From Calditrichaceae bacterium (GTDB lineage: Bacteria > Calditrichota > Calditrichia > Calditrichales > JBFXGD01): a stretch of 11,632 nt of DNA. A model generated the notes under the pieces. The model made no database searches, had not been told where the DNA came from, and was given only the letters and a program-made list of their open reading frames with translations. This document shows, piece by piece, positions 1 through 11,632 of the stretch. A program made the position numbers and the translations under genes. Location: contig JBFXGD010000111.1 of assembly GCA_050178385.1 (NCBI GenBank), positions 1 to 11,632 on the forward strand, in the 5' to 3' direction. Every line of letters starts with the position of its first letter. Position 1 is the first letter of the stretch.

Positions 1-251
1 ACAGCATCGGGCGGTGCGCTGAACAGAAAAAAACTGCTGTCGGAAACCATAACAAGTTCAAGGGAGATGATCAAAACCGATGTCGCGAAAATGGGTATGG
101 GTTCCAGTACCCAGAAAAGAGTCGCCATGACAAAGATAGCGATAAGCCGCTGTTCAACAACAGATATATTATCAATCGGAATCCATTGGCCGGGCATAAT
201 CAGAATCAATACCGGAATGATAATCGCAATGGCTGGTTTGATATAACGCAT
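1..251 (-). CDS. DASS/SLC13-family Na+/anion (dicarboxylate/sulfate) symporter, N-terminal fragment running off the window edge
   Basis: Hand translation from ATG at 251-249 (GGAG at 260-257) gives MRYIKPAIAIIIPVLILIMPGQWIPIDNISVVEQRLIAIFVMATLFWVLEPIPIFATSVLIISLELVMVSDSSFFLFSAPPDA with no stop. LFWVLEPIPIFATS matches the WxxExxP N-terminal signature of DASS transporters. Not in the supplied ORF track. Confidence 0.85.
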   Translation of the reverse strand, partial: MRYIKPAIAIIIPVLILIMPGQWIPIDNISVVEQRLIAIFVMATLFWVLEPIPIFATSVLIISLELVMVSDSSFFLFSAPPDA

Positions 252-321
252 ACAGACTCCGTTTTTTACTTATAATGTGCAGCAAGGCGGTGAATTTAAA
301 TAGAAATATAATATTCAACAA

Positions 322-339
322 GGATTAATAAATTAATCC
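322..339. promoter_or_regulatory. Perfect inverted repeat, possible operator in the divergent promoter region
   Basis: GGATTAAT-AA-ATTAATCC: 8-bp arms, 2-bp spacer, between the divergent transporter and hppD. Function is inferred. Confidence 0.35.
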
Positions 340-560
340 CGCATACCATCCATAAACTATGTTTTCTGAACTCAGATTAAAGATAGTCAGAACTCTGATT
401 TACATGATTAGATGAATACTCTGATATTCACTTCTTAATTATCTCCATCATTGAATCATAGTTCAGATATTTTCCCTTCTTCAATTCCTAATTCTTACTT
501 TCTTCCTGCTCGAACAGAAAATTCGCCCCGAAGAATCTTATTTCCTCAATCCTTCCGTGA

Positions 561-588
561 TTGACAATAGCTCACAGCATACTATAGC
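561..588 (+). promoter_or_regulatory. Possible sigma70-type promoter for hppD
   Basis: Consensus -35 TTGACA at 561-566, but only a poor -10 candidate (TATAGC at 583-588, 16-bp spacer). Confidence 0.25.
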
Positions 589-593
589 TCTTC

Positions 594-683
594 TCTTTTT
601 TCTTTTATCTTTTTTCTTTTATCTTATCTTTCCTACTTCCTACTTCTTACTTTTTACTTCTTCCTCATTTTTCTCATTCCTCA
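594..683 (+). repeat. Degenerate pyrimidine-rich heptamer tandem repeats
   Basis: TCTTTTT-TCTTTTA twice (594-621); TTCCTAC, TTCCTAC, TTCTTAC, TTTTTAC (630-657); TTCCTCA (661-667), TTTCTCA (670-676), TTCCTCA (677-683). No G from 588 to 685. Confidence 0.8.
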
Positions 684-708
684 CAGAATAAAATCGCCCC
701 TCTGTGAG
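680..708. promoter_or_regulatory. Hairpin/inverted repeat in the hppD leader
   Basis: CTCACAGA (680-687) and TCTGTGAG (701-708) form a perfect 8-bp stem with a 13-nt loop, ending 45 nt before the hppD ATG. No long U-tract follows. Confidence 0.45.
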
Positions 709-753
709 TTAAGAAAGGTACATTTTGATAAAAGTAAATTCAGGAGTATTTGC

Positions 754-1845
754 ATGAAAGCGCCATTCGAAATAATGGGTATCGATCATGTAAGTTTTAT
801 CGTGGGAAACGCCAGACAAGCGGCCCATTATTATCAAACACAATTCGGTTTCGAGCCGGTGGCCTACAGCGGGCTGGAGACCGGAAACAGGGACAGCGTA
901 TCCTACGTTCTTCAGCAGAGTAAAATTCGTTTTATACTATCATCACCTTTAAGCGCTGATTCAGAATTAAATGAACATATCAGACTGCACGGCGACGGAG
1001 TCAAAAACGTTGCCTTTTGGGTGAATGATGCCCGGGCCGCGTGGGAGTACGTCACGGGTAACGGGGCAGTCTCAACACTGCACCCAACTGTTGCCGATGA
1101 TGAAAATGGAGAAGTCAAGATCGCAACGGTGAAAACCTTTGGGGACACCGTGCACAGTTTTGTTGAACGAAAATCATATAACGGTGTGTTTCTGCCGGGA
1201 TATTTTCCGTATCGTTCGGCGCTGCGCACTGAACCCGTGGGCTTGAATTACATCGATCATTTTGTGGGCAATCAACCGGAAGGTGAAATGACCAGAGTAG
1301 CGGAATGGTATGAAAAGGTTTTCGGATTTCACCGTTTCTGGTCAGCGGATGACAAAGACATTTCCACCGAACACTCGGCTCTTAGATCGGTTGTGGTCGC
1401 GAATGAGAACGAACGCGTAAAAATGCCTATAAACAGACCCGCGGCGGGGCTTCGCAAATCTCAGATAGAGGAATTTGTGGAATATTACTCGGGGCCGGGT
1501 ATTCAGCATATCGCCATGGAGACAAAAGATATTGTTCGTACAGTTGGTAAATTGGCCGCAAACGGCGTTGAATTTTTGGATGTGCCCGGATCGTATTATA
1601 ACGAACTACCGGATCGGGTCGGAAAAATAGATGAAGATCTCACCGCGCTTTCAAAGCTGGGGATACTCGTGGATAAGGATGAGTCAGGCTATATGCTGCA
1701 AATTTTTACAAAACCTGTCCAGGATCGCCCGACATTATTTTTTGAAATCATCCAGCGAAAAGGATCACAGAGTTTTGGCAAGGGAAATTTCAAAGCGTTG
1801 TTTGAAGCCATTGAAAGAGAACAGGACCGCAGAGGAAATCTGTAA
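754..1845 (+). CDS. hppD: 4-hydroxyphenylpyruvate dioxygenase
   Basis: 363 aa. Fe facial-triad motifs IDHFVGN, GIQHIA and LFFEIIQR; C-terminal FGKGNFKALFEAIEREQ; HGDGVK; SQIEEF. RBS AGGAG at 742-746. Confidence 0.97.
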   Translation: MKAPFEIMGIDHVSFIVGNARQAAHYYQTQFGFEPVAYSGLETGNRDSVSYVLQQSKIRFILSSPLSADSELNEHIRLHGDGVKNVAFWVNDARAAWEYVTGNGAVSTLHPTVADDENGEVKIATVKTFGDTVHSFVERKSYNGVFLPGYFPYRSALRTEPVGLNYIDHFVGNQPEGEMTRVAEWYEKVFGFHRFWSADDKDISTEHSALRSVVVANENERVKMPINRPAAGLRKSQIEEFVEYYSGPGIQHIAMETKDIVRTVGKLAANGVEFLDVPGSYYNELPDRVGKIDEDLTALSKLGILVDKDESGYMLQIFTKPVQDRPTLFFEIIQRKGSQSFGKGNFKALFEAIEREQDRRGNL

Positions 1846-1866
1846 AAATATTTTTTCAGTTTTTTT
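1840..1866. promoter_or_regulatory. Near-perfect palindrome over the hppD stop followed by T7 (operator-like or weak terminator)
   Basis: CTGTAAAAATATTTTTTCAG (1840-1859, one mismatched pair), then seven T (1860-1866). The core reads TGTAAA-N6-TTTTCA. Confidence 0.3.
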
Positions 1867-1985
1867 GATACATTGAATCTATTAGTTTACAGATTAATCC
1901 GGTTCCCCATAAGCGCTGTATCTGATTTACAGACTCTGTTAAGTTTATCGTCAGATTTAAATTCACTTTTGCAGATAAAAAATAT

Positions 1986-2969
1986 ATGAAATTACTTTCA
2001 TTTTCTAATAAGAAAGATAACAGACAGCGCGCGGGGATATTTCTTCATGACCGGGTTATTGATCTGGAGAAAGCGGCGGTTTGGGCAAAAGTCCAAAACA
2101 ACTACAGTGCCGATCTTACCCCGCCTGTGACCGTGAACGCGTTGTTAAAGGAATGGAGCAGTTCTTTTCCAAAACTGACAGGTTTATTGGAAATTTTGTT
2201 AAATGTTAATCCTGCTGACCTAAACGTCGATGGTCAGTCCGCTGTTGTTCAATCATCTGATGTGATATTTCATCCTCCTGTATCAAATCCGCCATCATTC
2301 AGGGATTTCTACGCTTTTGAACAGCATGTAAAAACGGCGCGCGCGCTCAGGAAATTGCGAATGATTCCGGAGTGGTACGAATTTCCCGTTTTTTATTTTT
2401 CAAATCCAAACGCCTTTCTCGGTCATGGTCAGAGCCTGCGGAAGCCAGAATATACGCGGGAACTGGATTATGAACTTGAAATCGCCTGTATCATCGGCAG
2501 GCAGGGCAGGGATATTCAACCGGAAAATGCCGCGGATTATATCGCCGGTTACTCGATATTAAATGACTGGTCAGCGAGGGATATTCAAAGACAAGAAATG
2601 CGCGTGGGACTGGGACCGGCAAAGGGAAAAGATTTTGCATCGAGCCTTGGGCCATACCTTGTCACACCGGATGAAATAGAGGGTTTGCGTAAAAACAAAG
2701 GATATCTTCTAAAAATGACCGCGAAACGAAACGGACGGTTGCTTTCTGAAGGTAACTTCGCGGATATTACATACAGTTTTGAAGAAATGATCGCCCGCGC
2801 CTCACAGGGAGTTACCTTGTTCCCGGGTGATGTTATCGGATCGGGAACCGTGGGAACAGGGTGTATTCTGGAATTGAGACCGGAGCAGGCAGGCGGATGG
2901 ATAGAGAAAGGGGATCTCGTTGAGCTTGAAATTGACCGATTAGGAATTTTAAGTACTCTTGTGGATTAA
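1986..2969 (+). CDS. fahA: Fumarylacetoacetate hydrolase family protein (probable fumarylacetoacetase of the homogentisate pathway)
   Basis: 327 aa. FAH motifs RDFYAFEQH, PVFYFSN, LDYELE, NDWSARD, KGKDF and GDVIGSGT; located between hppD and hmgA. Confidence 0.88.
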   Translation: MKLLSFSNKKDNRQRAGIFLHDRVIDLEKAAVWAKVQNNYSADLTPPVTVNALLKEWSSSFPKLTGLLEILLNVNPADLNVDGQSAVVQSSDVIFHPPVSNPPSFRDFYAFEQHVKTARALRKLRMIPEWYEFPVFYFSNPNAFLGHGQSLRKPEYTRELDYELEIACIIGRQGRDIQPENAADYIAGYSILNDWSARDIQRQEMRVGLGPAKGKDFASSLGPYLVTPDEIEGLRKNKGYLLKMTAKRNGRLLSEGNFADITYSFEEMIARASQGVTLFPGDVIGSGTVGTGCILELRPEQAGGWIEKGDLVELEIDRLGILSTLVD

Positions 2970-3013
2970 ATTGTGTTAATTATCGCATGTCGGCATGAAA
3001 AATAGGAGTTAAC

Positions 3014-4123
3014 ATGAAATTCTTTTACATCATGATTCTTTTCCTGGTTTTGAGTTCATCTGCCGCTGAATTTAAAAGCGGAGAGTCCGTGAAAGTTGTT
3101 AACGGTGATACCATGTTGACGGATTTATTCGCCGGAGCCGGTAGTGTCGATATCCGGGGATATATTAAAGGTGATCTCTATACGGGTTGTGAAACAGTAA
3201 ACATTGAGGGTGTAATTGAAGATGATGTCATCGCGGGTTGCCGTCGGTTAATCTTGACCGGAAAAGTCAATGATATGGTAATTAGCGGCGGGGAAAGTGT
3301 CGTTATTGACGGTGAAGTCGGAGGCGATGTTCTTGTGTACAGCGGCAGTCTCAAGATTACGGATCGCGGATTAATCAGGGGAAATGTAATCACCGGTTCC
3401 GGTGAGTTCCGGCTGGAAGGCGGGCGGATTAATGGATCTGTTCGTGGAAGTTCCCGGAATTCTTTTTTAAACGGATTTATAGGCGAAGGTGTCGATCTTG
3501 AAGCCCACAATATTGATTTTGGTCCTGATTATTCGTCCCCGATGGGTACAAAATTAACAGTAACGAGAAAAATGGATATCGATAAAATTCCGTTTCGTCC
3601 GGGGGATCTTGAAATTATTATCAAACCGGAATCATCCTTCTATCAGACAAAGTTTTTTTATTGGGGAATTTTGGCCATGTTTGTTGTCGGGATCATCCTT
3701 AGTTTGTTTTTTAAGCCATTTTTAAAAAATTTAACAAGCTCGATGACCGAAAGAGTGGGTTACGGCTCCGGTATAGGATTTCTTTTTCTTGTATTGACGC
3801 CACTGACGATTACAATACTGCTGGTCTTGATCATTACCATCCCTGCGGCTCTGATTTTAGCGGCGGTTTACCTTATTACAGTATATATCGGAATTATCAT
3901 TACAGGTTTATTCATCGGAAATTATTTACAAAAATTGCTGATAAAAGGAGAAGAACCGGGAAATTTGATTCTTTCAATGCTCATAGGTATCGTTTTAATC
4001 GCGCTGTTCCGGGAGATACCCAGAATAGGATGGTTGATTGATGTGGGCGCGGTCTGTCTGGGCGCCGGAAGTCTATTATTGTATTTGTGGGATCTGACGC
4101 AGACAGGTGTCCGAAAAGCTTGA
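3014..4123 (+). CDS. Membrane protein with signal peptide, bactofilin-like (polymer-forming cytoskeletal) beta-helix repeats and a C-terminal multi-TM domain
   Basis: 369 aa. N-terminal MKFFYIMILFLVLSSSAA is signal-peptide-like. About 7 repeats of ~17 aa (e.g. GDLYTGCETVNIEGVIE, DDVIAGCRRLILTGKVN, DMVISGGESVVIDGEVG). About 5 hydrophobic helices after residue ~210. RBS AGGAG at 3004-3008. Confidence 0.75.
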   Translation: MKFFYIMILFLVLSSSAAEFKSGESVKVVNGDTMLTDLFAGAGSVDIRGYIKGDLYTGCETVNIEGVIEDDVIAGCRRLILTGKVNDMVISGGESVVIDGEVGGDVLVYSGSLKITDRGLIRGNVITGSGEFRLEGGRINGSVRGSSRNSFLNGFIGEGVDLEAHNIDFGPDYSSPMGTKLTVTRKMDIDKIPFRPGDLEIIIKPESSFYQTKFFYWGILAMFVVGIILSLFFKPFLKNLTSSMTERVGYGSGIGFLFLVLTPLTITILLVLIITIPAALILAAVYLITVYIGIIITGLFIGNYLQKLLIKGEEPGNLILSMLIGIVLIALFREIPRIGWLIDVGAVCLGAGSLLLYLWDLTQTGVRKA

Positions 4124-4242
4124 CGGAATCCGCGGCAATGCGTTAAAGGATAGATAAACAATGGGAATTTTAAGAGGAAGGCGAAACATTGAGATTCTAA
4201 AGATGGTTCAATGTAGAAAATGAAGGTAAATGAAGGAAACAT

Positions 4243-5400
4243 ATGCCATATTATATAAAAAGAGGTGAAATCCCCCCGAAGAGGCATATTCAGCATCGTG
4301 GCTCAGACGGAAGTTTAAGATACGAGGAACTGATAAGCCGGGAGGGTTTTTCGAATATCTATTCAAATGCCTATCACATTTATCCTCCAACCCGGATAAA
4401 AAAAGTCGGGTCATTTAAACCGGTTAAAATGACCCCTGCAACAGATTCTACGCACCGGCACAGACATCTCGAAACATTTAAATATGCACCATTTGGAGAC
4501 TGGATTAGTGGGCGCCGGCTGCTTGCCTATAATAACGATGTCGTAATGTCAACCATCTGTCCTGAAACAAACGCGGACTTTTTTTACAGAAATGGGAATG
4601 CGGATGAAGTAATATTCGTACATCGCGGGCGGGGAATGCTGAAAAGTCAGTTTGGAGACCTGCCGTTTGAAGACGGTGATTATATTGTCATTCCGGGCGG
4701 TACGCTTTATCAGTTTAAGTTTGAAAGTGATGATACACGTCTGCTGGTCATCGAATCGTTTGGTCCGGTTGAGCCTCCAAAGCGGTATGTCAATAAATTC
4801 GGGCAGCTTCTTGAGCACGCCCCCTATTGTGAACGTGATATTATTGTGCCGGAATTTTCAGGCCCGATTGATGAAACCGGGGATTTTAAGATTTTGTTGA
4901 AACTCAGAACCGGAATCCAGGAGTACACTCTCGCGCATCACCCTTTTGATCTTGTAGGGTGGGATGGTTATTATTATCCCTGGATTTTAAACATTGGTGA
5001 CTTTATGCCAATCGTAGGGAAGCTGCATCAGCCTCCTCCGGTACACCAAACCTTTGCCGGACCTGGATTTGTAATCTGCTCTTTTGTCCCGAGGCTGTTC
5101 GATTTTCACGAATTATCCATCCCGGCGCCATACAATCACAGCAATGTGGATAGTGATGAAGTGCTGTATTATGTAGAAGGTGATTTCATGAGCCGCAAAG
5201 GTGTCAGTCAGGGATCAGTCACCATCCATCCCGCGGGTATTCCGCATGGCCCGCACCCGGGTCGCTATGAGGAGTCAATCGGAAAGAAAAAAACCGAAGA
5301 GCTGGCGGTGATGCTGGATACATTCAAACCGCTTATAATTGCCAAAGATGCGGATGAAATTGATGATCCGGCTTACCCCTTAAGCTGGCTTGAAGGATAA
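4243..5400 (+). CDS. hmgA: Homogentisate 1,2-dioxygenase (short type)
   Basis: 385 aa. HPFDLVGWDG, HQPPPVH, Fe-ligand motifs PYNHSNVDSDEVLYY and HPAGIPHGPHPG, ELAVMLDT; clustered with hppD and the FAH gene. Confidence 0.95.
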   Translation: MPYYIKRGEIPPKRHIQHRGSDGSLRYEELISREGFSNIYSNAYHIYPPTRIKKVGSFKPVKMTPATDSTHRHRHLETFKYAPFGDWISGRRLLAYNNDVVMSTICPETNADFFYRNGNADEVIFVHRGRGMLKSQFGDLPFEDGDYIVIPGGTLYQFKFESDDTRLLVIESFGPVEPPKRYVNKFGQLLEHAPYCERDIIVPEFSGPIDETGDFKILLKLRTGIQEYTLAHHPFDLVGWDGYYYPWILNIGDFMPIVGKLHQPPPVHQTFAGPGFVICSFVPRLFDFHELSIPAPYNHSNVDSDEVLYYVEGDFMSRKGVSQGSVTIHPAGIPHGPHPGRYEESIGKKKTEELAVMLDTFKPLIIAKDADEIDDPAYPLSWLEG

Positions 5401-5436
5401 ACAGGTACAATAAACTGAACAGACCGGAAGGCAATA

Positions 5437-6057
5437 ATGATAATTGATCCAAAGAAGCAGACATTTAAAGAAAATTACAAGTTGATGATCGGAAGTATTT
5501 TACCTCGACCGATCGCATTTGTCTCTACGATTTCGCCGAATGGCGTCACAAATCTGGCGCCATTCTCATTTTTTACCGGAATAACATCGCAGCCGCCAAC
5601 CATATGTTTTTCACCGACCCGCAGGGGAAACGACGGACATAAAAAGGATACTTTGAATAATATCGAACAGACCGAAGAATTTGTAGTCAATATTGTGACG
5701 GAGGGAATCATTGAGCAGGTAAATGACGCCGCGACCGAATTCCCTCCCGAGATCAGCGAGTTTGAACAAACGGGACTCACGCCTGTAAAGTCAGAGATGG
5801 TTAAACCGCCGAGAGTAAAGGAATCACCCATAAGCTTTGAATGCAAATTGTATAGGATCATTGAAATCGGACCCGCTGAACAGGGCGGAGGATTCTTAGT
5901 GATTGGTGAAATTGTGCTCTTTCATGTGGATGATGAGCTCCTAAAGAACGGTCGGATCGACACAGGGCTGTTAATGCCGGTAGGGCGATTGGCCGGGGCT
6001 GAGTACACGACACTCGGCAGGCGTTTTTCATTGGAACGTAAAATATATAAACCATGA
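5437..6057 (+). CDS. Flavin reductase-like FMN-binding protein (DIM6/NTAB/flavoredoxin type)
   Basis: 206 aa. PRPIAFVST, NLAPFSFF, KKDTLNNI, EFVVNIV, SEFEQTGLT, PPRVKESPISFEC and GRLAGAEY are typical of this split-barrel family. Confidence 0.92.
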   Translation: MIIDPKKQTFKENYKLMIGSILPRPIAFVSTISPNGVTNLAPFSFFTGITSQPPTICFSPTRRGNDGHKKDTLNNIEQTEEFVVNIVTEGIIEQVNDAATEFPPEISEFEQTGLTPVKSEMVKPPRVKESPISFECKLYRIIEIGPAEQGGGFLVIGEIVLFHVDDELLKNGRIDTGLLMPVGRLAGAEYTTLGRRFSLERKIYKP

Positions 6058-6169
6058 GGTTCGAACGATAGCTCATGTTCTATGGAAAATTCTGATGAAT
6101 TTAATTCGATGAGCCGATCGGATCCGATAATTCTCAGAGATCATTTATGTAATTAATCTGGAGAATCTT

Positions 6170-8146
6170 ATGCCCGGCAGACAGAATCAGCCGTTGTCTT
6201 TTCCTTTTGATCAGAAAATAGTTTGGAAACCGGTAAAAAAATGGATGGCAGAGAGCAATCTGCAGAAATTCATGAACAAACACGATATTGCTGACTATGA
6301 TCACCTTATGGAACGTTCCATAAACGATGCGTCATGGTTTTGGGACGCGGTGATACATGATCTGGAAATCGACTTCTATAAACCGTATTCGAATGTACTG
6401 GATACAAGCGGCGGTATGGAGCTGCCGGTTTGGTGTGCTGACGGCAAAATGAATATCATACATAATTGTCTCGATAAATGGCAGAAAACAAAAGCGCGTC
6501 ATCAGGCGGCAATTCGCTGGGAAAATGAACAAGGAACAGTAAAAATTCTCACCTATGAAGAACTGTACCATGAAGTAAACCGCTGCGCCAACGGACTGCG
6601 TTCACTGGGGCTTGGAAAAGGTGATTCTGTCGGATTGCTGATGCCGATGATACCGGAGCTGGTCATCGCCTTTCTGGCGGTTTTGAAAATCGGAGGTATG
6701 ATACTTCCATTATTCAGCGGATACGGCCCTTCTGCAATATCAAGCCGTCTGAACGATTGCCGCGCCAAGGCAATTGTAACAGCAGACGGATACTATCGCA
6801 GGGGAAAAAGTATCGGTATGAAAGCCATCGCTGATGAGGCCTTGCTTGAGTCCCCTTCGGTAAAAAAGATGATTGTCGTGGACTATATCTCCAGAAAAAA
6901 TATAAACTGGGTTGAAGAAAGAGATCACTGGTGGCATGAGCTAATTCCAAGGCAATCGGATAAAGCGGTCACCGAAGAAACCGGCGCGGAAGATGTGGCG
7001 ATGCTCATATACACAAGCGGGACTACCGGGAAGCCGAAAGGCGCGGTGCATACGCATTGCGGATTTCCGGTCAAAGCAGCCATGGATATGTTTTACGCCA
7101 TGGATTTAAAACCCGGAAATGTCATGTATTGGATGACGGATATGGGCTGGATGATGGGTCCGTGGGAAGTATTCGGCACGCTGATTCTCGGAGCCACCAT
7201 GGTGTTTTATGAAGGAGCGCCTGATTATCCTGAACCTGATCGCCTATGGTCTCTGATAGAAAATCATCATATCACGCATCTGGGGCTTTCTCCGGCCCTC
7301 ATACGGACACTTAAAACCCATGGATCTGGGGTTGTCAAAAAACATGATGTAACCTCTTTACGGATGGCCGGGTCAACCGGCAGTCCCTGGGATCCGGATT
7401 CGTGGCTTTGGTTATTCAAAAATGTATTAAATAGTGAAAAACCGATACTAAATTATTCAGGCGGCACAGAAATAAGCGGCGGAATTATTTCCGGAAACTT
7501 TTTTAAACCGCTGAAACCATGCTCCTTCTCAGGTCCGGTAATCGGAATGGATGCGGATGTGGTCAATGAAAAGGGTGAGCCTGTTCGCGGTGAGGTAGGC
7601 GAGCTGGTAATCCGAAAACCCTGGATCGGGATGACACGCGGTTTTTGGAATGACCGTCAGCGATATCTGGATACTTACTGGAGTCGGTTCGGTAACATGT
7701 GGCTTCATGGCGATTTTGCGGCGATTGACGATGAAAATCTATGGTTTATCCTCGGCCGAAGCGATGATACGATAAAAATAGCAGGAAAACGTCTGGGACC
7801 GGCTGAAGTTGAGTCAATCCTGAACAGTCATCCGGCTGTCACGGAATCCGCGGCCATCGGTATCCCTCATCCGATAAAAGATCAGGAAGTTATAGGATTT
7901 TGCGTGCTGAAAGAAGGTTATAAACCCGATGAAAAAGTAAGATCGGAGCTGCAGGAATTGGTAACCACCGGTCTTGGAAAAGCTTTGAAACCAAAAGAAG
8001 TTCGTTTTGTAAAAGCGCTTCCTAAAACCAGGAATGCCAAGGTGATGCACCGGATTATCAGGGCGGCGTATTTGCAGGAGGCGATGGGTGATCTGAGCGG
8101 TCTGGAGGATCCGGGAGCGGTCAACGCCATTCAAAACTCAATGTGA
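6170..8146 (+). CDS. AMP-forming short-chain acyl-CoA synthetase (acetoacetate/acetate-CoA ligase-like)
   Basis: 658 aa. P-loop YTSGTTGKPKG, NYSGGTE, HGDFA, GRSDDTIKIAGKRLGPAEVE, catalytic-Lys motif LPKTRNAK. GGAG RBS. Substrate is not certain. Confidence 0.88.
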   Translation: MPGRQNQPLSFPFDQKIVWKPVKKWMAESNLQKFMNKHDIADYDHLMERSINDASWFWDAVIHDLEIDFYKPYSNVLDTSGGMELPVWCADGKMNIIHNCLDKWQKTKARHQAAIRWENEQGTVKILTYEELYHEVNRCANGLRSLGLGKGDSVGLLMPMIPELVIAFLAVLKIGGMILPLFSGYGPSAISSRLNDCRAKAIVTADGYYRRGKSIGMKAIADEALLESPSVKKMIVVDYISRKNINWVEERDHWWHELIPRQSDKAVTEETGAEDVAMLIYTSGTTGKPKGAVHTHCGFPVKAAMDMFYAMDLKPGNVMYWMTDMGWMMGPWEVFGTLILGATMVFYEGAPDYPEPDRLWSLIENHHITHLGLSPALIRTLKTHGSGVVKKHDVTSLRMAGSTGSPWDPDSWLWLFKNVLNSEKPILNYSGGTEISGGIISGNFFKPLKPCSFSGPVIGMDADVVNEKGEPVRGEVGELVIRKPWIGMTRGFWNDRQRYLDTYWSRFGNMWLHGDFAAIDDENLWFILGRSDDTIKIAGKRLGPAEVESILNSHPAVTESAAIGIPHPIKDQEVIGFCVLKEGYKPDEKVRSELQELVTTGLGKALKPKEVRFVKALPKTRNAKVMHRIIRAAYLQEAMGDLSGLEDPGAVNAIQNSM

Positions 8147-8151
8147 TTTGT

Positions 8152-8160
8152 TGTTATAAT
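8152..8160 (+). promoter_or_regulatory. Extended -10 promoter element upstream of the prenyltransferase fusion gene
   Basis: TGTTATAAT is a perfect TGnTATAAT ending 25 nt before the ATG at 8186. No good -35. Confidence 0.45.
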
Positions 8161-8185
8161 AATTTTTCATTGCGACGGAGAGCAA

Positions 8186-9730
8186 ATGGAGAATAATTTA
8201 GATGAACTTGATCTAAGGATAGGAAGATTGTTGGACGGTGCGGACAGGATGGTAATCGCCACGTCCGTTGACAATAACAGTTCCGGGGCGTCTGTCTTCT
8301 TCGCCAGGGATAACCGGGATCTTGTTTTTTTTACATTTAATCCCACCCGTAAAGCAGAACAGATTCGTATTAATCCCAAAATTCAGGCTGTTATCTGGCC
8401 GGCCGGTCATCAAGGAATCCGTGGTATTCAGGTAGAGGGGATTTGTCACCTGATCAAAGATAAAACCGACGAAGAACGCGTCCATGATCTTATTTTGGCA
8501 AAAACGACCGCATTCAGGGAATACATGGATGACCAGTTTCTGATCAAGAACAAGGTGGTCGGCTATTATCGGATTAAGCCTACCCGTGTCAAGTACGTTG
8601 ATTTTTATGCGGATGAAAAATTTGAATGGCGTGAATATCCTGAAAACCAGGTGCATGTCATGGTGGACCTGATCCAGTCCGTATACTCCAGAATTGGACT
8701 GTGGTTAAGAGCGGTCAGGGCTCCGTTTTTTACGGCGGCGATTGTGCCGGTCATACTTGGCGGAGTAATCGCGTGGAACGATCTGCTTGACAGAGGCGCG
8801 TCTGATACCTGGAGTTGGTCGATGTTTTGGCTTATTCTCGCGGGCGCTATATTAGCTCAGGCCGGAACAAATATGGGCAATGATTATTTCGATCATACCA
8901 GCCGGGCTGATGAGTATAACAAAGTTTTCAGCCCATTTAACGGCGGCAGCCGGATGATACAGGCGGGTTTGATGGCGCCATGGAAAGTTCTTTTCGCCAC
9001 CGTACTTTCCTTTGGCGCGACAATTTATATCGGATTAAAATTAAATATGATCATCACCGGCGCTTATTTTGGGAACAGCCCGCTTTTGTGGGTTGGTTTT
9101 TTTGGGATCGCGCTGGGAATATTCTACACCTGGAATCCGGTTCGTCTCTCCTATCACGGCTGGGGAGAGCCGGCAATCGCGCTGGGATTCGGTCCGGTGA
9201 TGGTGTTGGGCACACACTATGTGTTGACCGCTCCGTATCTTAATGCCAACAGTCTGGGCTGGAGCTGGCAAATGCCGTTTCTTGCGTCCATACCGGTCGC
9301 AATTTTGATTATGCTGGTGGTTTGGATCAATCAATTTCAGGATTTACAATCGGATAAACAAGCCGGAAAAATTACCTGGGTGGTAAGGCTTGCCGGTTAT
9401 AAGGATGATCATGTTTTGTATGAACGGCCTTTTAAATACTATGCTATTTTTAATTATATGAGTTTTGCGTTTATTTTTATGCTGGGTATCATTGGGTTTT
9501 TCCGTCCCGCCCTTGCTACGCCGTTTGTACTGATTTCATTGATTCCGCTGATACTTGTTAGACATGCGGTCAAATGGGGTGAAGAGTGGATAAATCGCTG
9601 GAACAGAGTCGATGCGGACCGTCAAAGATTGCCGTATGAATTGTTAAAGGTCAATGCTTCAACTGTCGGAATTCATTTCCTTACCGGCAGTCTGATGATC
9701 CTCGGTTACTGGCTTCATACCGTCTGGTAG
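8186..9730 (+). CDS. Fusion of a PNPOx-like split-barrel flavin-binding domain and a MenA-type (UbiA superfamily) prenyltransferase
   Basis: 514 aa, one ORF. Residues ~1-150 (MVIATS..ASVFFA..LVFFT..TRKAEQIRINPKI..RGIQVEG..YYRIKPTRVKYVD) are PNPOx-like. Residues ~170-514 carry RAPFFTAAIVPVILG, NDYFD, GGSRMIQ, YHGWGE and NQFQDLQSDKQAGKITWVVRL (both Asp-rich motifs) plus about 8-9 TM helices. Confidence 0.85.
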   Translation: MENNLDELDLRIGRLLDGADRMVIATSVDNNSSGASVFFARDNRDLVFFTFNPTRKAEQIRINPKIQAVIWPAGHQGIRGIQVEGICHLIKDKTDEERVHDLILAKTTAFREYMDDQFLIKNKVVGYYRIKPTRVKYVDFYADEKFEWREYPENQVHVMVDLIQSVYSRIGLWLRAVRAPFFTAAIVPVILGGVIAWNDLLDRGASDTWSWSMFWLILAGAILAQAGTNMGNDYFDHTSRADEYNKVFSPFNGGSRMIQAGLMAPWKVLFATVLSFGATIYIGLKLNMIITGAYFGNSPLLWVGFFGIALGIFYTWNPVRLSYHGWGEPAIALGFGPVMVLGTHYVLTAPYLNANSLGWSWQMPFLASIPVAILIMLVVWINQFQDLQSDKQAGKITWVVRLAGYKDDHVLYERPFKYYAIFNYMSFAFIFMLGIIGFFRPALATPFVLISLIPLILVRHAVKWGEEWINRWNRVDADRQRLPYELLKVNASTVGIHFLTGSLMILGYWLHTVW

Positions 9731-9747
9731 TGTAAAGCAGTTCACAA
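9730..9747. promoter_or_regulatory. Rex-operator-like site upstream of the pnt genes
   Basis: GTGTAAA-GCAG-TTCACAA versus Rex consensus TTGTGAA-N4-TTCACAA (12 of 14 positions match). Confidence 0.35.
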
Positions 9748-9912
9748 CCGGCGGCGCACGGCCGAAGGATTCTACAGAAATTTATTGAAGTCTGTTGGTA
9801 TTATTTTTATAAAATTTTCATGCCAAGAAATATTGTTTGTAACATATTCAGTTCATCTTTTTCAAATGAATAGAATATTAAATGGAAAACTAAAATAACA
9901 GGGGAGGTAAAA

Positions 9913-11046
9913 TTGAAATTCGGAATTCCCAGGGAAATTACAAAAGGTGAGACGCGTGTGGCAGTTATTCCATCAATGATCAGCGCGCTCACCCGCAATA
10001 ATCATGAGGTATTGATAGAATCAGGCGCTGGGGTATCCGCTTCTTTTAGCGATGAGCAATATAAAGAAGCCGGAGCCCAAATTATTAAAGATACCACGGA
10101 ATTGTACAAGGCGGCGGATGTCATCATTAAAGTACAGGTACCACAGCTGCAAGAAGTTGAACTGATAAAAAATGGCGGTCATCTTATATCCTACCTCGCG
10201 CCATTTAACAATCTTGATGTCATCCAAAAATTGGCGGACCGTAAAATTACGTCATTCGCAATGGAATTTATCCCAAGAATAACCCGTGCTCAAAGTATGG
10301 ACTCGCTAAGTTCCATGGCGACGCTTGCCGGTTATAAAGCCGTGCTGCTTGCAGCCAATCATTTAGGCAAGATTTTTCCGTTAATGATGACTGCCGCGGG
10401 TACTATTCCTCCTGCCGGCGTGTTCGTGCTCGGGGCGGGTGTGGCAGGCTTGCAGGCGATAGCGACGGCAAAACGGCTCGGCGCGAAGGTCGAAGCGTTT
10501 GATCCGCGCGCCGCTGTCAGGGAACAGGTTCAGAGTCTCGGAGCGCAGTTTGTGGAAATGGAGATGCCGGAGGACGCTGAAACATCGGGCGGATACGCGA
10601 AAGAACAATCCGATGAATTTCTCAAAAAAGAACAGGAAGCCATTGGAGCCCGTCTGCCAAAGATCGATGCCGTAATAACCACGGCTCAGATATTCGGCAA
10701 AAAAGCGCCGATTCTTATTACGGAAGAAATGGTGAAAATGATGAAACCCGGTTCTGTTATTATTGATCTTGCGGCGGAACAGGGAGGAAACTGTGAGCTT
10801 ACCCAGGCAGATAAGATTATTGAAAAAAACGGAGTTATTATCAACGGTACGGTAAATTTGCCGGCGACCCTTCCCGTTCACGCTAGTCAGATGTATTCCA
10901 AAAATATTACAAATCTGTTAAAACATCTTTATCAGAATGAACAATTTGATTTTGATGACGAAATTACAAAGGGCGCGTGCATCACCCATGATGGAAAAAT
11001 CCTTAATGATGCGATCGCAAATGCAGTAAAAAGCGGAGGAAAATAG
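9913..11046 (+). CDS. pntAA: NAD(P) transhydrogenase subunit alpha part 1 (soluble NAD(H)-binding domain I)
   Basis: 377 aa. TTG start with GGAGG at 9903-9907. GETRVA, PRITRAQSMDSLSS, GAGVAG, GGYAKE and DLAAEQGGNC motifs. Confidence 0.96.
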   Translation: MKFGIPREITKGETRVAVIPSMISALTRNNHEVLIESGAGVSASFSDEQYKEAGAQIIKDTTELYKAADVIIKVQVPQLQEVELIKNGGHLISYLAPFNNLDVIQKLADRKITSFAMEFIPRITRAQSMDSLSSMATLAGYKAVLLAANHLGKIFPLMMTAAGTIPPAGVFVLGAGVAGLQAIATAKRLGAKVEAFDPRAAVREQVQSLGAQFVEMEMPEDAETSGGYAKEQSDEFLKKEQEAIGARLPKIDAVITTAQIFGKKAPILITEEMVKMMKPGSVIIDLAAEQGGNCELTQADKIIEKNGVIINGTVNLPATLPVHASQMYSKNITNLLKHLYQNEQFDFDDEITKGACITHDGKILNDAIANAVKSGGK

Positions 11047-11047
11047 A

Positions 11048-11350
11048 ATGAATGATGTGATAATGGTTTCACTATATGTGTTCGTTTTGGCAATGTTTGT
11101 GGGTTTTGAAGTCATCACAAAAGTACCGCCGCTACTGCATACTCCTCTAATGTCAGGGTCAAACGCGATCTCCGGTATCACGCTGGTTGGTTCGTTGATA
11201 AGCGCCGGGAGCGGATTTGATGAGCTTGGAAAAATCCTGGGAATGCTCGCCGTGATCAGCGCCACGATTAATGTGGTCGGAGGATTTATGGTTACGGACC
11301 GGATGCTGGAAATGTTTAAAAAGGACAAAGAAAAGAAGGGGAGCAACTGA
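11048..11350 (+). CDS. pntAB: NAD(P) transhydrogenase subunit alpha part 2 (membrane)
   Basis: 100 aa. VPPLLHTPLMSGSNAISG and NVVGGFMVTDRMLEMF motifs; starts 1 nt after the pntAA stop. Confidence 0.96.
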   Translation: MNDVIMVSLYVFVLAMFVGFEVITKVPPLLHTPLMSGSNAISGITLVGSLISAGSGFDELGKILGMLAVISATINVVGGFMVTDRMLEMFKKDKEKKGSN

Positions 11351-11632
11351 TGGTAACGATTACAAATGGGGTTTATCTGATTGCTGCAGCGCTTTTTATT
11401 TTCGGACTGAAAAAGCTGAGCTCGCCAAAGACCGCAAGACAGGGGAATCTGCTGGCCATGATCGCAATGCTTCTGGCCGTGGTTATGACTTTGCTTGACA
11501 GGTCCATTCTGGACTTCACATATATCATCGCCGGTCTGATTATTGGCGCGGCCATTGGCGGAATTGCCGCAAAAAAGGTTGAAATGACGCAAATGCCGCA
11601 GATGGTGGCGCTTTTCAACGGGGTTGGAGGGG
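11350..11632 (+). CDS. pntB: NAD(P) transhydrogenase subunit beta, N-terminal fragment
   Basis: ATG at 11350 overlaps the pntAB TGA (TGATG). Translates MVTITNGVYLIAAALFIFGLKKLSSPKTARQGN...KKVEMTQMPQMVALFNGVGG, open to the window end. Not in the ORF track. Confidence 0.95.
   Translation, partial: MVTITNGVYLIAAALFIFGLKKLSSPKTARQGNLLAMIAMLLAVVMTLLDRSILDFTYIIAGLIIGAAIGGIAAKKVEMTQMPQMVALFNGVGG

Follow-up and report, generated by a model that had tools for sequence, protein, structure and literature searches.

The stretch of DNA analysed here, which we refer to as the window, comprises 11,632 nucleotides from a Calditrichaceae bacterium (positions 1 to 11,632 of the forward strand of contig JBFXGD010000111.1, assembly GCA_050178385.1). 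At positions 8186..9730 its plus strand, which carries every part of the gene described below, holds a single open reading frame (ORF) of 514 amino acids plus stop, with an ATG start and zero internal stops, in which a PNPOx-like domain is fused to a MenA-like prenyltransferase of the UbiA fold. An earlier note on this DNA had described one uninterrupted ORF joining a soluble PNPOx-like domain (~8186-8640) to a MenA-like membrane domain (~8700-9730). The ORF call, the Pfam and NCBIfam matches and a structural model all bear this description out, with domain limits that agree to within a few codons. Residues 1-150 (8186..8635) form the N-terminal split-barrel domain, delimited from the Pfam PNPOx_N match, Foldseek and the secondary structure of the model. 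They are followed by a linker (8636..8713), defined from the alignment and the model, that contains the conserved residues P152 and N154 and a helix (residues 158-176) running into the first membrane helix. The remainder of the protein, residues 177-514 (8714..9727), is a UbiA-fold, MenA/UBIAD1-like membrane prenyltransferase domain with nine long helices, as judged from PF01040, NCBIfam and the model.

The AlphaFold2 model of the fusion was computed with a 43-sequence alignment as input, and has a mean predicted local distance difference test score (pLDDT) of 90.9 and a predicted template modelling score (pTM) of 0.86. It is rich in beta structure over residues 1-150 and continues with the helix at 158-176 and then with nine long helices up to the C-terminus, so that both the split-barrel N-domain and the nine-helix UbiA-fold domain are recovered in a single prediction. 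Both Asp-rich motifs are retained in the C-domain, as had been claimed. In the first, N229-x-x-N232-D233-x-x-D236-H237 (8870..8896), all of the named residues are invariant among the 43 aligned members, and in the second, N382-Q-F-Q-D386-x-x-x-D390 (9329..9355), N382, D386 and D390 are likewise invariant (43/43). The two motifs align with NLANDYGD and NNLRDINSD, respectively, of E. coli MenA, and with the first and second motifs of UBIAD1. Motif 1 is followed by a family-specific S-P-F-N-G-G-S-R loop segment (residues 249-256, 8930..8953), identified from the alignment and the model, in which P250, F251, G253, G254, S255 and R256 are invariant (43/43). This segment sits between membrane helices 2 and 3, with a pLDDT of 64-68 at residues 241-260. 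As the model has two membrane helices lying between the N-domain and motif 1, helix parity suggests that the N-domain lies on the same, cytoplasmic, face of the membrane as both Asp-rich motifs.

The fusion is a genuine and widespread gene. Scanning a single genome for each prokaryotic species with a pattern gave 214 confirmed relatives, and the locus counts reported in this work cover 80 of these 214. In all 80 loci tblastn reads through the junction in one frame, across many independent assemblies, and 79 of them contain one complete ORF, the other (L027) being cut by a contig end. The possibility that the junction is an assembly artefact, which the earlier note had raised, can therefore be rejected. 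The 80 loci come from Calditrichota, KSB1, Fidelibacterota, Bacteroidota, Chlorobiota, Gammaproteobacteria and Ca. Actinomarina, the last of these being the most numerous, and the best match of our fusion, at 90% identity, is found in a Calditrichaceae metagenome-assembled genome (MAG). A word-indexed homologue search returned 397 matches at E<=1e-3 among 8000 scored candidates; 117 of the 120 matches listed (495-662 amino acids) contain both PF01243 and PF01040. One of the listed matches, on a contig of 4.9 Mb, is recorded as 'Calditrichota bacterium LG25', a cultured carrier of the fusion. Far from being rare, the architecture has many database entries, which bear automatic names such as 'UbiA family prenyltransferase' and '1,4-dihydroxy-2-naphthoate octaprenyltransferase / NimA-like flavoprotein'. 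Across seven phyla the N- and C-domains are under equal constraint, with mean pairwise identities in the 43-member alignment of 58.6% and 59.9%, while the linker is the least conserved part at 41.3%.

The family was extended further by searching 1.84 billion cluster representatives exhaustively with HMMER, which gave 4484 matches at E<=1e-3 and 122 at E<=1e-30. These include distant fused forms of 445-525 amino acids, which share 30-46% identity with the fusion and also contain PNPOx_N and UbiA, together with unfused relatives of ~300-350 amino acids that reach up to 51% identity in the C-domain. Other relatives carry an N-terminal PAS domain instead of the PNPOx-like domain (P0157, P0250), or an N-terminal region of ~120-200 amino acids lacking a Pfam match (P0154, P0155, P0201, P0215, P0234, P0240). 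N-terminal cytoplasmic add-ons seem to recur in this MenA-like branch.

When the N-domain is scanned alone it scores 29.1 bits against PNPOx_N PF01243 (cutoff 28.1), its Pfam matches being PF01243 and PF12900, and 25 of the 26 family N-domains match PF01243 at E<=0.01, the best of them at 6.8e-13. Foldseek places it in the split-barrel fold, with TM scores by target of 0.81 for 2i02 and 0.84 for both 3ec6 and 3db0, and its matches comprise flavoproteins as well as the heme-binding split barrels 6m0a, 5bnc and 3gas. Among proteins of solved structure, those closest to a profile built from the 26 N-domains are E. coli PdxH and general stress protein 26 (E 0.003-0.006). Since the profile E-values against solved PNPOx-like proteins are only 0.003-0.05, the N-domain is, as far as sequence profiles can tell, a distant subfamily of the PNPOx-like split barrels. 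A protein atlas yielded generic PNPOx names only.

In the profile alignment to PdxH (1dnl/1g76), the segment T54-R55-K56-A-E-Q-I-R-x-N63-P64 (8345..8377), or TRKAEQIRxNP, aligns with SRKAHQIENNP of the E. coli enzyme, a segment that we take to be the contact to the phosphate of flavin mononucleotide (FMN). R55 is retained in 42 and K56 in 38 of the 43 aligned members, A57, Q59, I60 and N63 are each present in all 43, and C87 is kept in 39. The same 43-member alignment contains no conserved His in the N-domain, which argues against heme ligation of the HugZ type. Modelling the N-domain as a homodimer with FMN riding along gave a score of 0.82 against 0.11 for the best control, a mark that 20 of 30 solved same-chain pairs attained, as did 1 of 23 single chains. 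Between runs of this model no fewer than 95% of contacts agree, the pLDDT of the partner is at least 85, and solved dimers share the fold. As PNPOx-type dimers have already been solved, however, the dimer score may reflect only likeness to these structures.

The C-domain belongs to the UbiA superfamily. It scores 73.9 bits against UbiA PF01040 over residues 208-459 (cutoff 34.2), carries the two Asp-rich motifs and adopts a fold of about nine helices, for which the Foldseek matches are 8djk (UBIAD1), 4tq4, 6m31 and 7bpu, that is, UBIAD1 and archaeal UbiA homologues including AfUbiA. Sequence comparison with E. coli MenA (b3930) gives 27% identity over 263 amino acids (E 1e-14). Ten models for 1,4-dihydroxy-2-naphthoate (DHNA) prenyltransferases, nine equivalogs and one subfamily, match the domain, and it reaches the cutoff of none of the ten; the score is 75.4 bits for TIGR00751 (cutoff 102.15) and, at best, 112.7 bits for NF004751 (cutoff 264). 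There are no MqnP models among the NCBIfam matches of the fusion, and the C-domain matches MenA models instead of those for homogentisate prenyltransferases.

A tree of C-domains was built with FastTree (152 tips, 297 columns; fragments P0122 and P0147 and representatives below 295 amino acids excluded). The fusion subfamily forms a clade of 16 tips with a support of 0.998, and 12 of these tips are fused. Together with the distant fused forms from Fidelibacterota it makes up a 37-tip clade (support 0.90; 29 fused, 8 unfused), which excludes E. coli MenA and five menB-linked MenAs from Fidelibacterota (6 tips, support 1.0), but still lies inside the MenA-like radiation relative to the UbiA/MqnP outgroup. 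Eight PNPOx-fused sequences are placed elsewhere within this radiation. Unfused members of the clade do exceed the TIGR00751 cutoff, with 117.1 and 113.3 bits against 102.15. Taken on its sequence, the C-domain is nearest to MenA and UBIAD1 and probably works like a MenA-type enzyme, yet stands outside the MenA equivalog families by curated tests. The earlier description of it as MenA-like thus holds, while 'complete MenA' is too strong, because all ten DHNA prenyltransferase cutoffs are missed and the domain falls outside the characterised-MenA clade.

To describe the gene neighbourhood, five ORFs on each side of the fusion were clustered de novo at 79 loci. Directly downstream, on the same strand, 48 of the 79 loci have a gene of the UbiE/COQ5 family (~207-232 amino acids), 47 of them actinobacterial and one from Fidelibacterota, and the downstream neighbour scores 154.6 and 92.7 bits against the UbiE/COQ5 Pfam model. 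The Fidelibacterota neighbour passes TIGR01934 (200.6, 184.2 and 189.6 bits against 158.35) at the three loci scanned out of five in large genomes, and a fourth large-genome locus has an ORF of equal size in the equivalent place. In four genomes (G001-G004) the UbiE-type neighbour is also the best UbiE-family match genome-wide, and one gammaproteobacterial locus has a generic class-I methyltransferase in the +1 place. Judged by gene neighbourhood, the fusion would work upstream of a MenG/UbiE methyltransferase. No cross-phylum partner besides this UbiE-family gene emerged from the clustering of the 79 loci; at L118, the small-genome Fidelibacterota locus scanned, the neighbours are housekeeping genes, and next to the distant fused forms lie DinG-like helicase or peptidase genes.

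The common denominator of the genomes that encode the fusion is the near-absence of the DHNA-forming MenB, not the absence of every quinone pathway. In the five complete fusion genomes neither MenB nor MenD is present over cutoff (0/5 for each). For three Actinomarina genomes, each near-complete and in a single contig, no MenB or MenD reaches its cutoff and MqnA/D gives no match; these three and two closed chromosomes are all without MenB, MenD and MqnA/D. In the Actinomarina genomes, each of ~1 Mb, the UbiA-family genes are a heme O synthase (over cutoff) and the fusion only, and the fusion looks like the sole quinone-type prenyltransferase of Ca. Actinomarina (3/3 genomes). The same three genomes have genes for two subunits of the NuoH type and for a single polyprenyl diphosphate synthase, and the cells therefore respire. 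Besides the fusion, the chromosome G004 from Fidelibacterota carries UbiA-family genes that are heme-O-synthase-like (208.2 bits against 210.3 for TIGR01473), DGGGP-synthase-like and DPPR-synthase-like. The three Actinomarina genomes and G004 all encode NuoH and a polyprenyl diphosphate synthase, from which it follows that these cells need a quinone. Across 61 sampled genomes of the Actinomarina family the fusion is present in 55, and MenB over cutoff and MqnA/D are each present in none; the six genomes without the fusion are assemblies of 0.6-0.9 Mb.

A sample of 151 Fidelibacterota genomes gave a similar picture. Of these, 42 match the family profile at E<=1e-50 (12 with the subfamily, 17 with distant fused and 13 with unfused forms), and MenB over cutoff occurs in 0 of these 42 clade-bearing genomes against 53 of the 109 others (Fisher p 3.3e-10, uncorrected for phylogeny). 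For MqnA/D the corresponding figures are 0/42 and 7/109. Where MenB is present in Fidelibacterota, a canonical MenA (209-238 bits) from a separate clade adjoins menB in all five cases checked. None of MenB, MqnA/D or the MenA-like clade is found in 49 of the 151, which could be due to incompleteness or to another quinone solution. In 20 further fusion genomes, MqnA/D was over cutoff in 12, three of which also have MenB, and neither was present in eight, gammaproteobacteria included; one gammaproteobacterial fusion genome also has true UbiA.

The genome from which the window is taken (3.89 Mb, 320 contigs, 94% complete) likewise has no MenB over cutoff. It contains three MqnA/D-family matches in total, one of which shares contig C147 with an MqnP/UbiA_other gene (TIGR01475, 315.9 bits against 180.8). 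This genome has the futalosine route with its own MqnP, and the fusion is therefore an additional enzyme there. There are 11 UbiA-family matches in the genome, and the UbiA-family loci L001-L011 lie on contigs C74, C25, C80, C311, C14, C203, C92, C104 and C118. The set includes three heme-O-synthase-like genes, two DGGGP-synthase-like genes (unusual in bacteria), one DPPR-synthase-like gene and two unclassified genes, as well as a second, weak MenA-like gene (L011, 319 amino acids) that sits on a long tree branch.

Within the window itself, Pfam and NCBIfam find no men or mqn genes besides the fusion, in line with what had been noted before. Upstream of the fusion, on the same strand, is a gene for 4-hydroxyphenylpyruvate dioxygenase (HPPD; 450 bits against a cutoff of 277), followed, also on this strand, by a fumarylacetoacetate-hydrolase-family gene, a 369-amino-acid ORF, a cupin, a flavin reductase and an acetyl-/acetoacetyl-CoA-synthetase-like gene. 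Positions 754-8146 (+) thus hold a non-canonical tyrosine/homogentisate cluster. Its cupin is divergent and weakly homogentisate 1,2-dioxygenase-like (47.7 bits against 510.75), and its ACS-like ligase falls below both the acetate and the acetoacetate cutoffs. A maleylacetoacetate isomerase is not evident in the cluster, a gap that could be filled by the 369-amino-acid ORF (3014-4123), which has no Pfam or NCBIfam match. This HPPD/FAH/HgmA-like cluster, which the earlier note had missed, was considered as a source of substrate for the fusion. The link to homogentisate was rejected because the cluster adjoins the fusion in 1 of 80 loci, that of a 90%-identical relative, and HPPD is over cutoff in 1 of 5 complete fusion genomes, and the three Actinomarina genomes give no HPPD match. 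The gene next after the fusion, at 9913-11631 (+), is a split proton-translocating transhydrogenase, PntAA / PntAB (100 amino acids, four transmembrane segments) / PntB. The adjacency of PntAB recurs in 6 of 80 loci, all of them Calditrichota-type records (one labelled Caldisericaceae), and was set aside as lineage synteny. A scan of 5900-10100 for promoters and terminators did not outperform shuffled sequence (10 vs 7.7 and 7 vs 4.1), and it revealed no operon boundary.

Further neighbours were seen in individual lineages. At the Ca. Actinomarina loci (L034 and 44-47 others) a divergent pair of exporter-fold ABC half-transporters stands upstream (-1 in 45, -2 in 43), and the fusion and UbiE genes are followed by a thioredoxin-fold AhpC/TSA-like gene, a DsbB-like gene and a rhodopsin gene. 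DsbB is a protein that uses quinones. At gammaproteobacterial loci a two-domain cytochrome c gene (L088 9299-9949, L090 9302-9964) ends just before, or overlaps, the start of the fusion on the same strand, and on the scaffold of the Olavius Gamma 3 symbiont a NosZ-like gene comes after the fusion (L088 11643-13964). Divergently upstream of a Fidelibacterota fusion-MenG pair there is a weak type II 3-dehydroquinate-dehydratase-like (AroQ-like) gene (L113 932-1444, minus strand; 73 bits against cutoffs of 130-195), which could hint at a shikimate branch.

Starting from the architecture, conservation, family placement, gene neighbourhood and co-occurrence pattern set out above, we infer a substrate, a flavin cofactor, a reductase role and a part in salvage for this protein. 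On the reading that we favour, the fusion, as a MenA-type enzyme, would prenylate a naphthoquinone head group not produced by the cell itself, and its flavin domain would keep that head group reduced. We hold this reading tentatively, and put its chance at somewhat less than even. The C-domain would place a polyprenyl chain onto a naphthoquinol-type head group, and the prenylated product would then be C-methylated by MenG/UbiE to give a menaquinone-type quinone. The N-domain, probably an FMN-binding, homodimeric split barrel at the cytoplasmic mouth of the active site, would act on the head group in its oxidised form, or on the quinone once prenylated, and reduce it to the quinol on which prenylation and methylation depend. 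Such an enzyme would serve cells without DHNA synthesis of their own. In Ca. Actinomarina and part of the Fidelibacterota it would act as the sole quinone prenyltransferase on a ring scavenged from outside, while in its own Calditrichaceae genome it would provide a side entry to a main route that runs through futalosine and MqnP. Naphthoquinone salvage had already been suggested in the earlier note; it gains indirect genomic support from the rarity with which MenB co-occurs and from MenG/UbiE being the next gene in two phyla, and is weakened by the presence of MqnA/D in many fusion genomes. A bolder extension is that Ca. Actinomarina and much of the Fidelibacterota (SAR406) may be unable to make the quinone ring and may live on the naphthoquinones of other microbes, with the fused flavin domain re-reducing the scavenged ring in oxic water. 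This extension seems to us unlikely, though with an appreciable chance of being right.

Several points weigh against the favoured reading. In the full protein the PNPOx_N match (PF01243, residues 16-107) scores 25.6 bits, below the cutoff of 28.1, and the cofactor of the N-domain could be flavin adenine dinucleotide (FAD), F420, heme or nothing. The top NCBIfam matches of the C-domain are MenA models, each below its curated cutoff, and as the fusion falls below every MenA cutoff the substrate may not be DHNA. Adjacency to MenG/UbiE amounts to two, perhaps three, independent lineages and not to 48, and as few as one or two evolutionary events may lie behind the mutual exclusion in Fidelibacterota. 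Genomes that do have a pathway carry the fusion too, with MqnA/D present in 12 of the 20 others and in its own genome, and MenB in 3 of the 20. Many of the genomes searched are incomplete MAGs or single-amplified genomes (SAGs). Moreover, because 13 of the 42 Fidelibacterota clade members are unfused and also without MenB, the missing head-group pathway tracks the clade and not the N-domain specifically. Finally, the PAS-domain relatives fit a sensing role as well as they do a redox role.

Sensing is the basis of the first alternative, in which the prenyltransferase is the same but the N-domain would be a non-catalytic module that binds or senses a ligand (an aromatic substrate, flavin, heme, quinone or redox state) and gates the enzyme allosterically. 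Many PNPOx-like proteins have no known catalysis, and close relatives of the C-domain bear either a PAS domain (P0157, P0250) or an unassigned region of ~120-200 residues in the equivalent position. The heme-binding split barrels (6m0a, 5bnc, 3gas) found by Foldseek besides flavoproteins also suit a sensor, but the conserved His for HugZ-type heme ligation is absent and the R-K segment typical of flavin-phosphate binding is retained (R55 42/43, K56 38/43). The N-domain is, in addition, as conserved as the catalytic domain, which fits an active site although it is no proof of one. Overall a purely sensory N-domain appears unlikely, but it has a real minority chance of being correct.

The pathway-less genomes themselves can be read in another way. 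Respiring lineages with NuoH, heme O synthase and polyprenyl synthase, and without MenB, MenD and MqnA/D, keep the fusion and MenG, and it is conceivable that they use an undescribed third route to the head group. The N-domain would then be an FMN-dependent oxidase/aromatase, like PdxH or PhzG, that passes the ring to the fused prenyltransferase, and there would be no auxotrophy. Characterised enzymes of the PNPOx family are oxidases, and the weak AroQ-like gene (73 bits, below cutoff) divergently upstream at one Fidelibacterota locus would be in keeping with such a route. Nevertheless, no recurrent extra biosynthetic neighbour is seen across phyla, and genomes of ~1 Mb leave little room for a multi-step pathway. 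Unfused clade members (13/42) occur in equally pathway-less genomes, and in Calditrichota the fusion coexists with a complete futalosine route. We regard a third route as improbable.

Still less probable, in our view, is that the fusion is an ordinary MenA orthologue with a minor N-terminal accessory, the absent head-group genes being a consequence of incomplete genomes or divergent Men enzymes. The counts for MenB (0/61 and 0/42) go beyond what incompleteness would explain, as MenB scores of 422-480 bits are reached in 53 of 109 sister genomes whose quality is similar, and the three near-complete Actinomarina genomes and two closed chromosomes without MenB, MenD and MqnA/D point the same way. 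The equal conservation of the N-domain and the catalytic domain across seven phyla also argues against a minor accessory. On the other side, MenA models are the best NCBIfam matches of the fusion, unfused clade members lie above the TIGR00751 cutoff (117.1 and 113.3 bits against 102.15), and many of the genomes searched are MAGs or SAGs. Prenylation of homogentisate (or another benzoquinol) to a plastoquinone- or tocopherol-like product, which the HPPD gene (450 bits, cutoff 277) and the homogentisate-pathway genes upstream on the same strand of the window had suggested, and which a UbiE-type methyltransferase would also suit, is largely refuted and scarcely credible, since the HPPD cluster adjoins the fusion in 1/80 loci, HPPD is over cutoff in 1/5 genomes and the C-domain matches MenA, not homogentisate prenyltransferase, models.

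We therefore return to the reading in which a MenA-type enzyme prenylates a naphthoquinone head group from elsewhere and its flavin domain keeps this reduced. If true, the reduction and the prenylation of a quinone head group would be united in one enzyme, an arrangement that is not described for MenA/UbiA in the papers searched. The earlier note knew of no characterised protein with this architecture, and none was found in the full-text literature (subscription-only papers being outside its scope), nor was any publication on a PNPOx-UbiA fusion. The architecture is already in databases under automatic names; a description or characterisation was not found in the literature searched. The one paper found to mention UbiA together with PNPOx concerns S. 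pombe Coq11/Coq12 (PMC10279924), and menaquinone synthesis is not taken up in passages of the genome paper on Caldithrix abyssi (PMC5317091).

On the genomic pattern seen here, major uncultured marine lineages respire and keep the last two steps of menaquinone synthesis without either known route to the ring. Two outcomes can be envisaged, namely that these lineages are head-group auxotrophs, in which case DHNA or naphthoquinones would be worth adding to isolation media, or that they have a third biosynthetic route. Either outcome would alter the annotation of quinone biosynthesis in metagenomes, where the family is now automatically named plain MenA or UbiA. Were the ring indeed scavenged in the sea, quinone head groups would pass between marine microbes as a public good, much as B vitamins do, and would be a growth factor so far missing when these lineages are brought into culture. 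Ca. Actinomarina and Fidelibacterota (SAR406) are two of the ocean's most abundant uncultured bacterial groups, and it is this ecological consequence that we find most interesting.

Among known systems, the fusion can be compared first with MenA (E. coli b3930; TIGR00751, NF004749-54), with which it shares the UbiA fold, the aligned Asp-rich motifs and, in many genomes, MenG/UbiE as the next gene. Unlike MenA, it has an extra N-terminal part of 176 residues (the flavin-type domain and linker) and the SPFNGGSR loop, scores below the MenA cutoffs, falls in a clade of its own (support 0.90; the canonical clade has 1.0) and occurs mostly in genomes without MenB. UBIAD1, the human menadiol geranylgeranyltransferase (8djk), is its best match in the PDB both by sequence (E 2e-4) and by fold (TM by target 0.73). 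The head group that UBIAD1 takes is a naphthoquinone already formed and reduced, not DHNA supplied by a Men pathway, and the use of such a head group is the logic that we propose for the fusion. It differs in being eukaryotic, ~300 amino acids long and without a fused redox domain, and the identity in the structural alignment is 17%.

For the N-domain, the nearest comparison is with PNPOx-like flavoproteins (PdxH, 1dnl/1g76; general stress protein 26, 3ec6; COG3871, 2i02), which resemble it in fold and R-K segment, and perhaps also in the homodimer predicted for it, and differ in being soluble, stand-alone proteins. The mycobacterial F420H2-dependent split-barrel quinone reductases may be a further analogue. 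In function, the proposed role of the N-domain has its counterpart in the type II NAD(P)H dehydrogenases NDC1/NdbB, which are separate, unfused proteins with an unrelated fold, that of flavoproteins with two dinucleotide-binding domains. According to passages in PMC8133638 (citing Fatihi et al. 2015), NDC1 is a flavin NAD(P)H quinone oxidoreductase that is indispensable between the MenA and the MenG reactions of plants and cyanobacteria, and in reducing a prenylated naphthoquinone it would be a functional analogue of the N-domain. As regards salvage, passages in PMC9704088 describe Porphyromonas and Tannerella strains that have only the last two menaquinone genes (menA, menG), need exogenous DHNA and grow when it is supplied. 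These strains are anaerobic and host-associated, whereas the fusion lineages are plankton of the oxic ocean, but in both the upstream men genes are gone and the last two are kept, as seen here in Actinomarina and Fidelibacterota.

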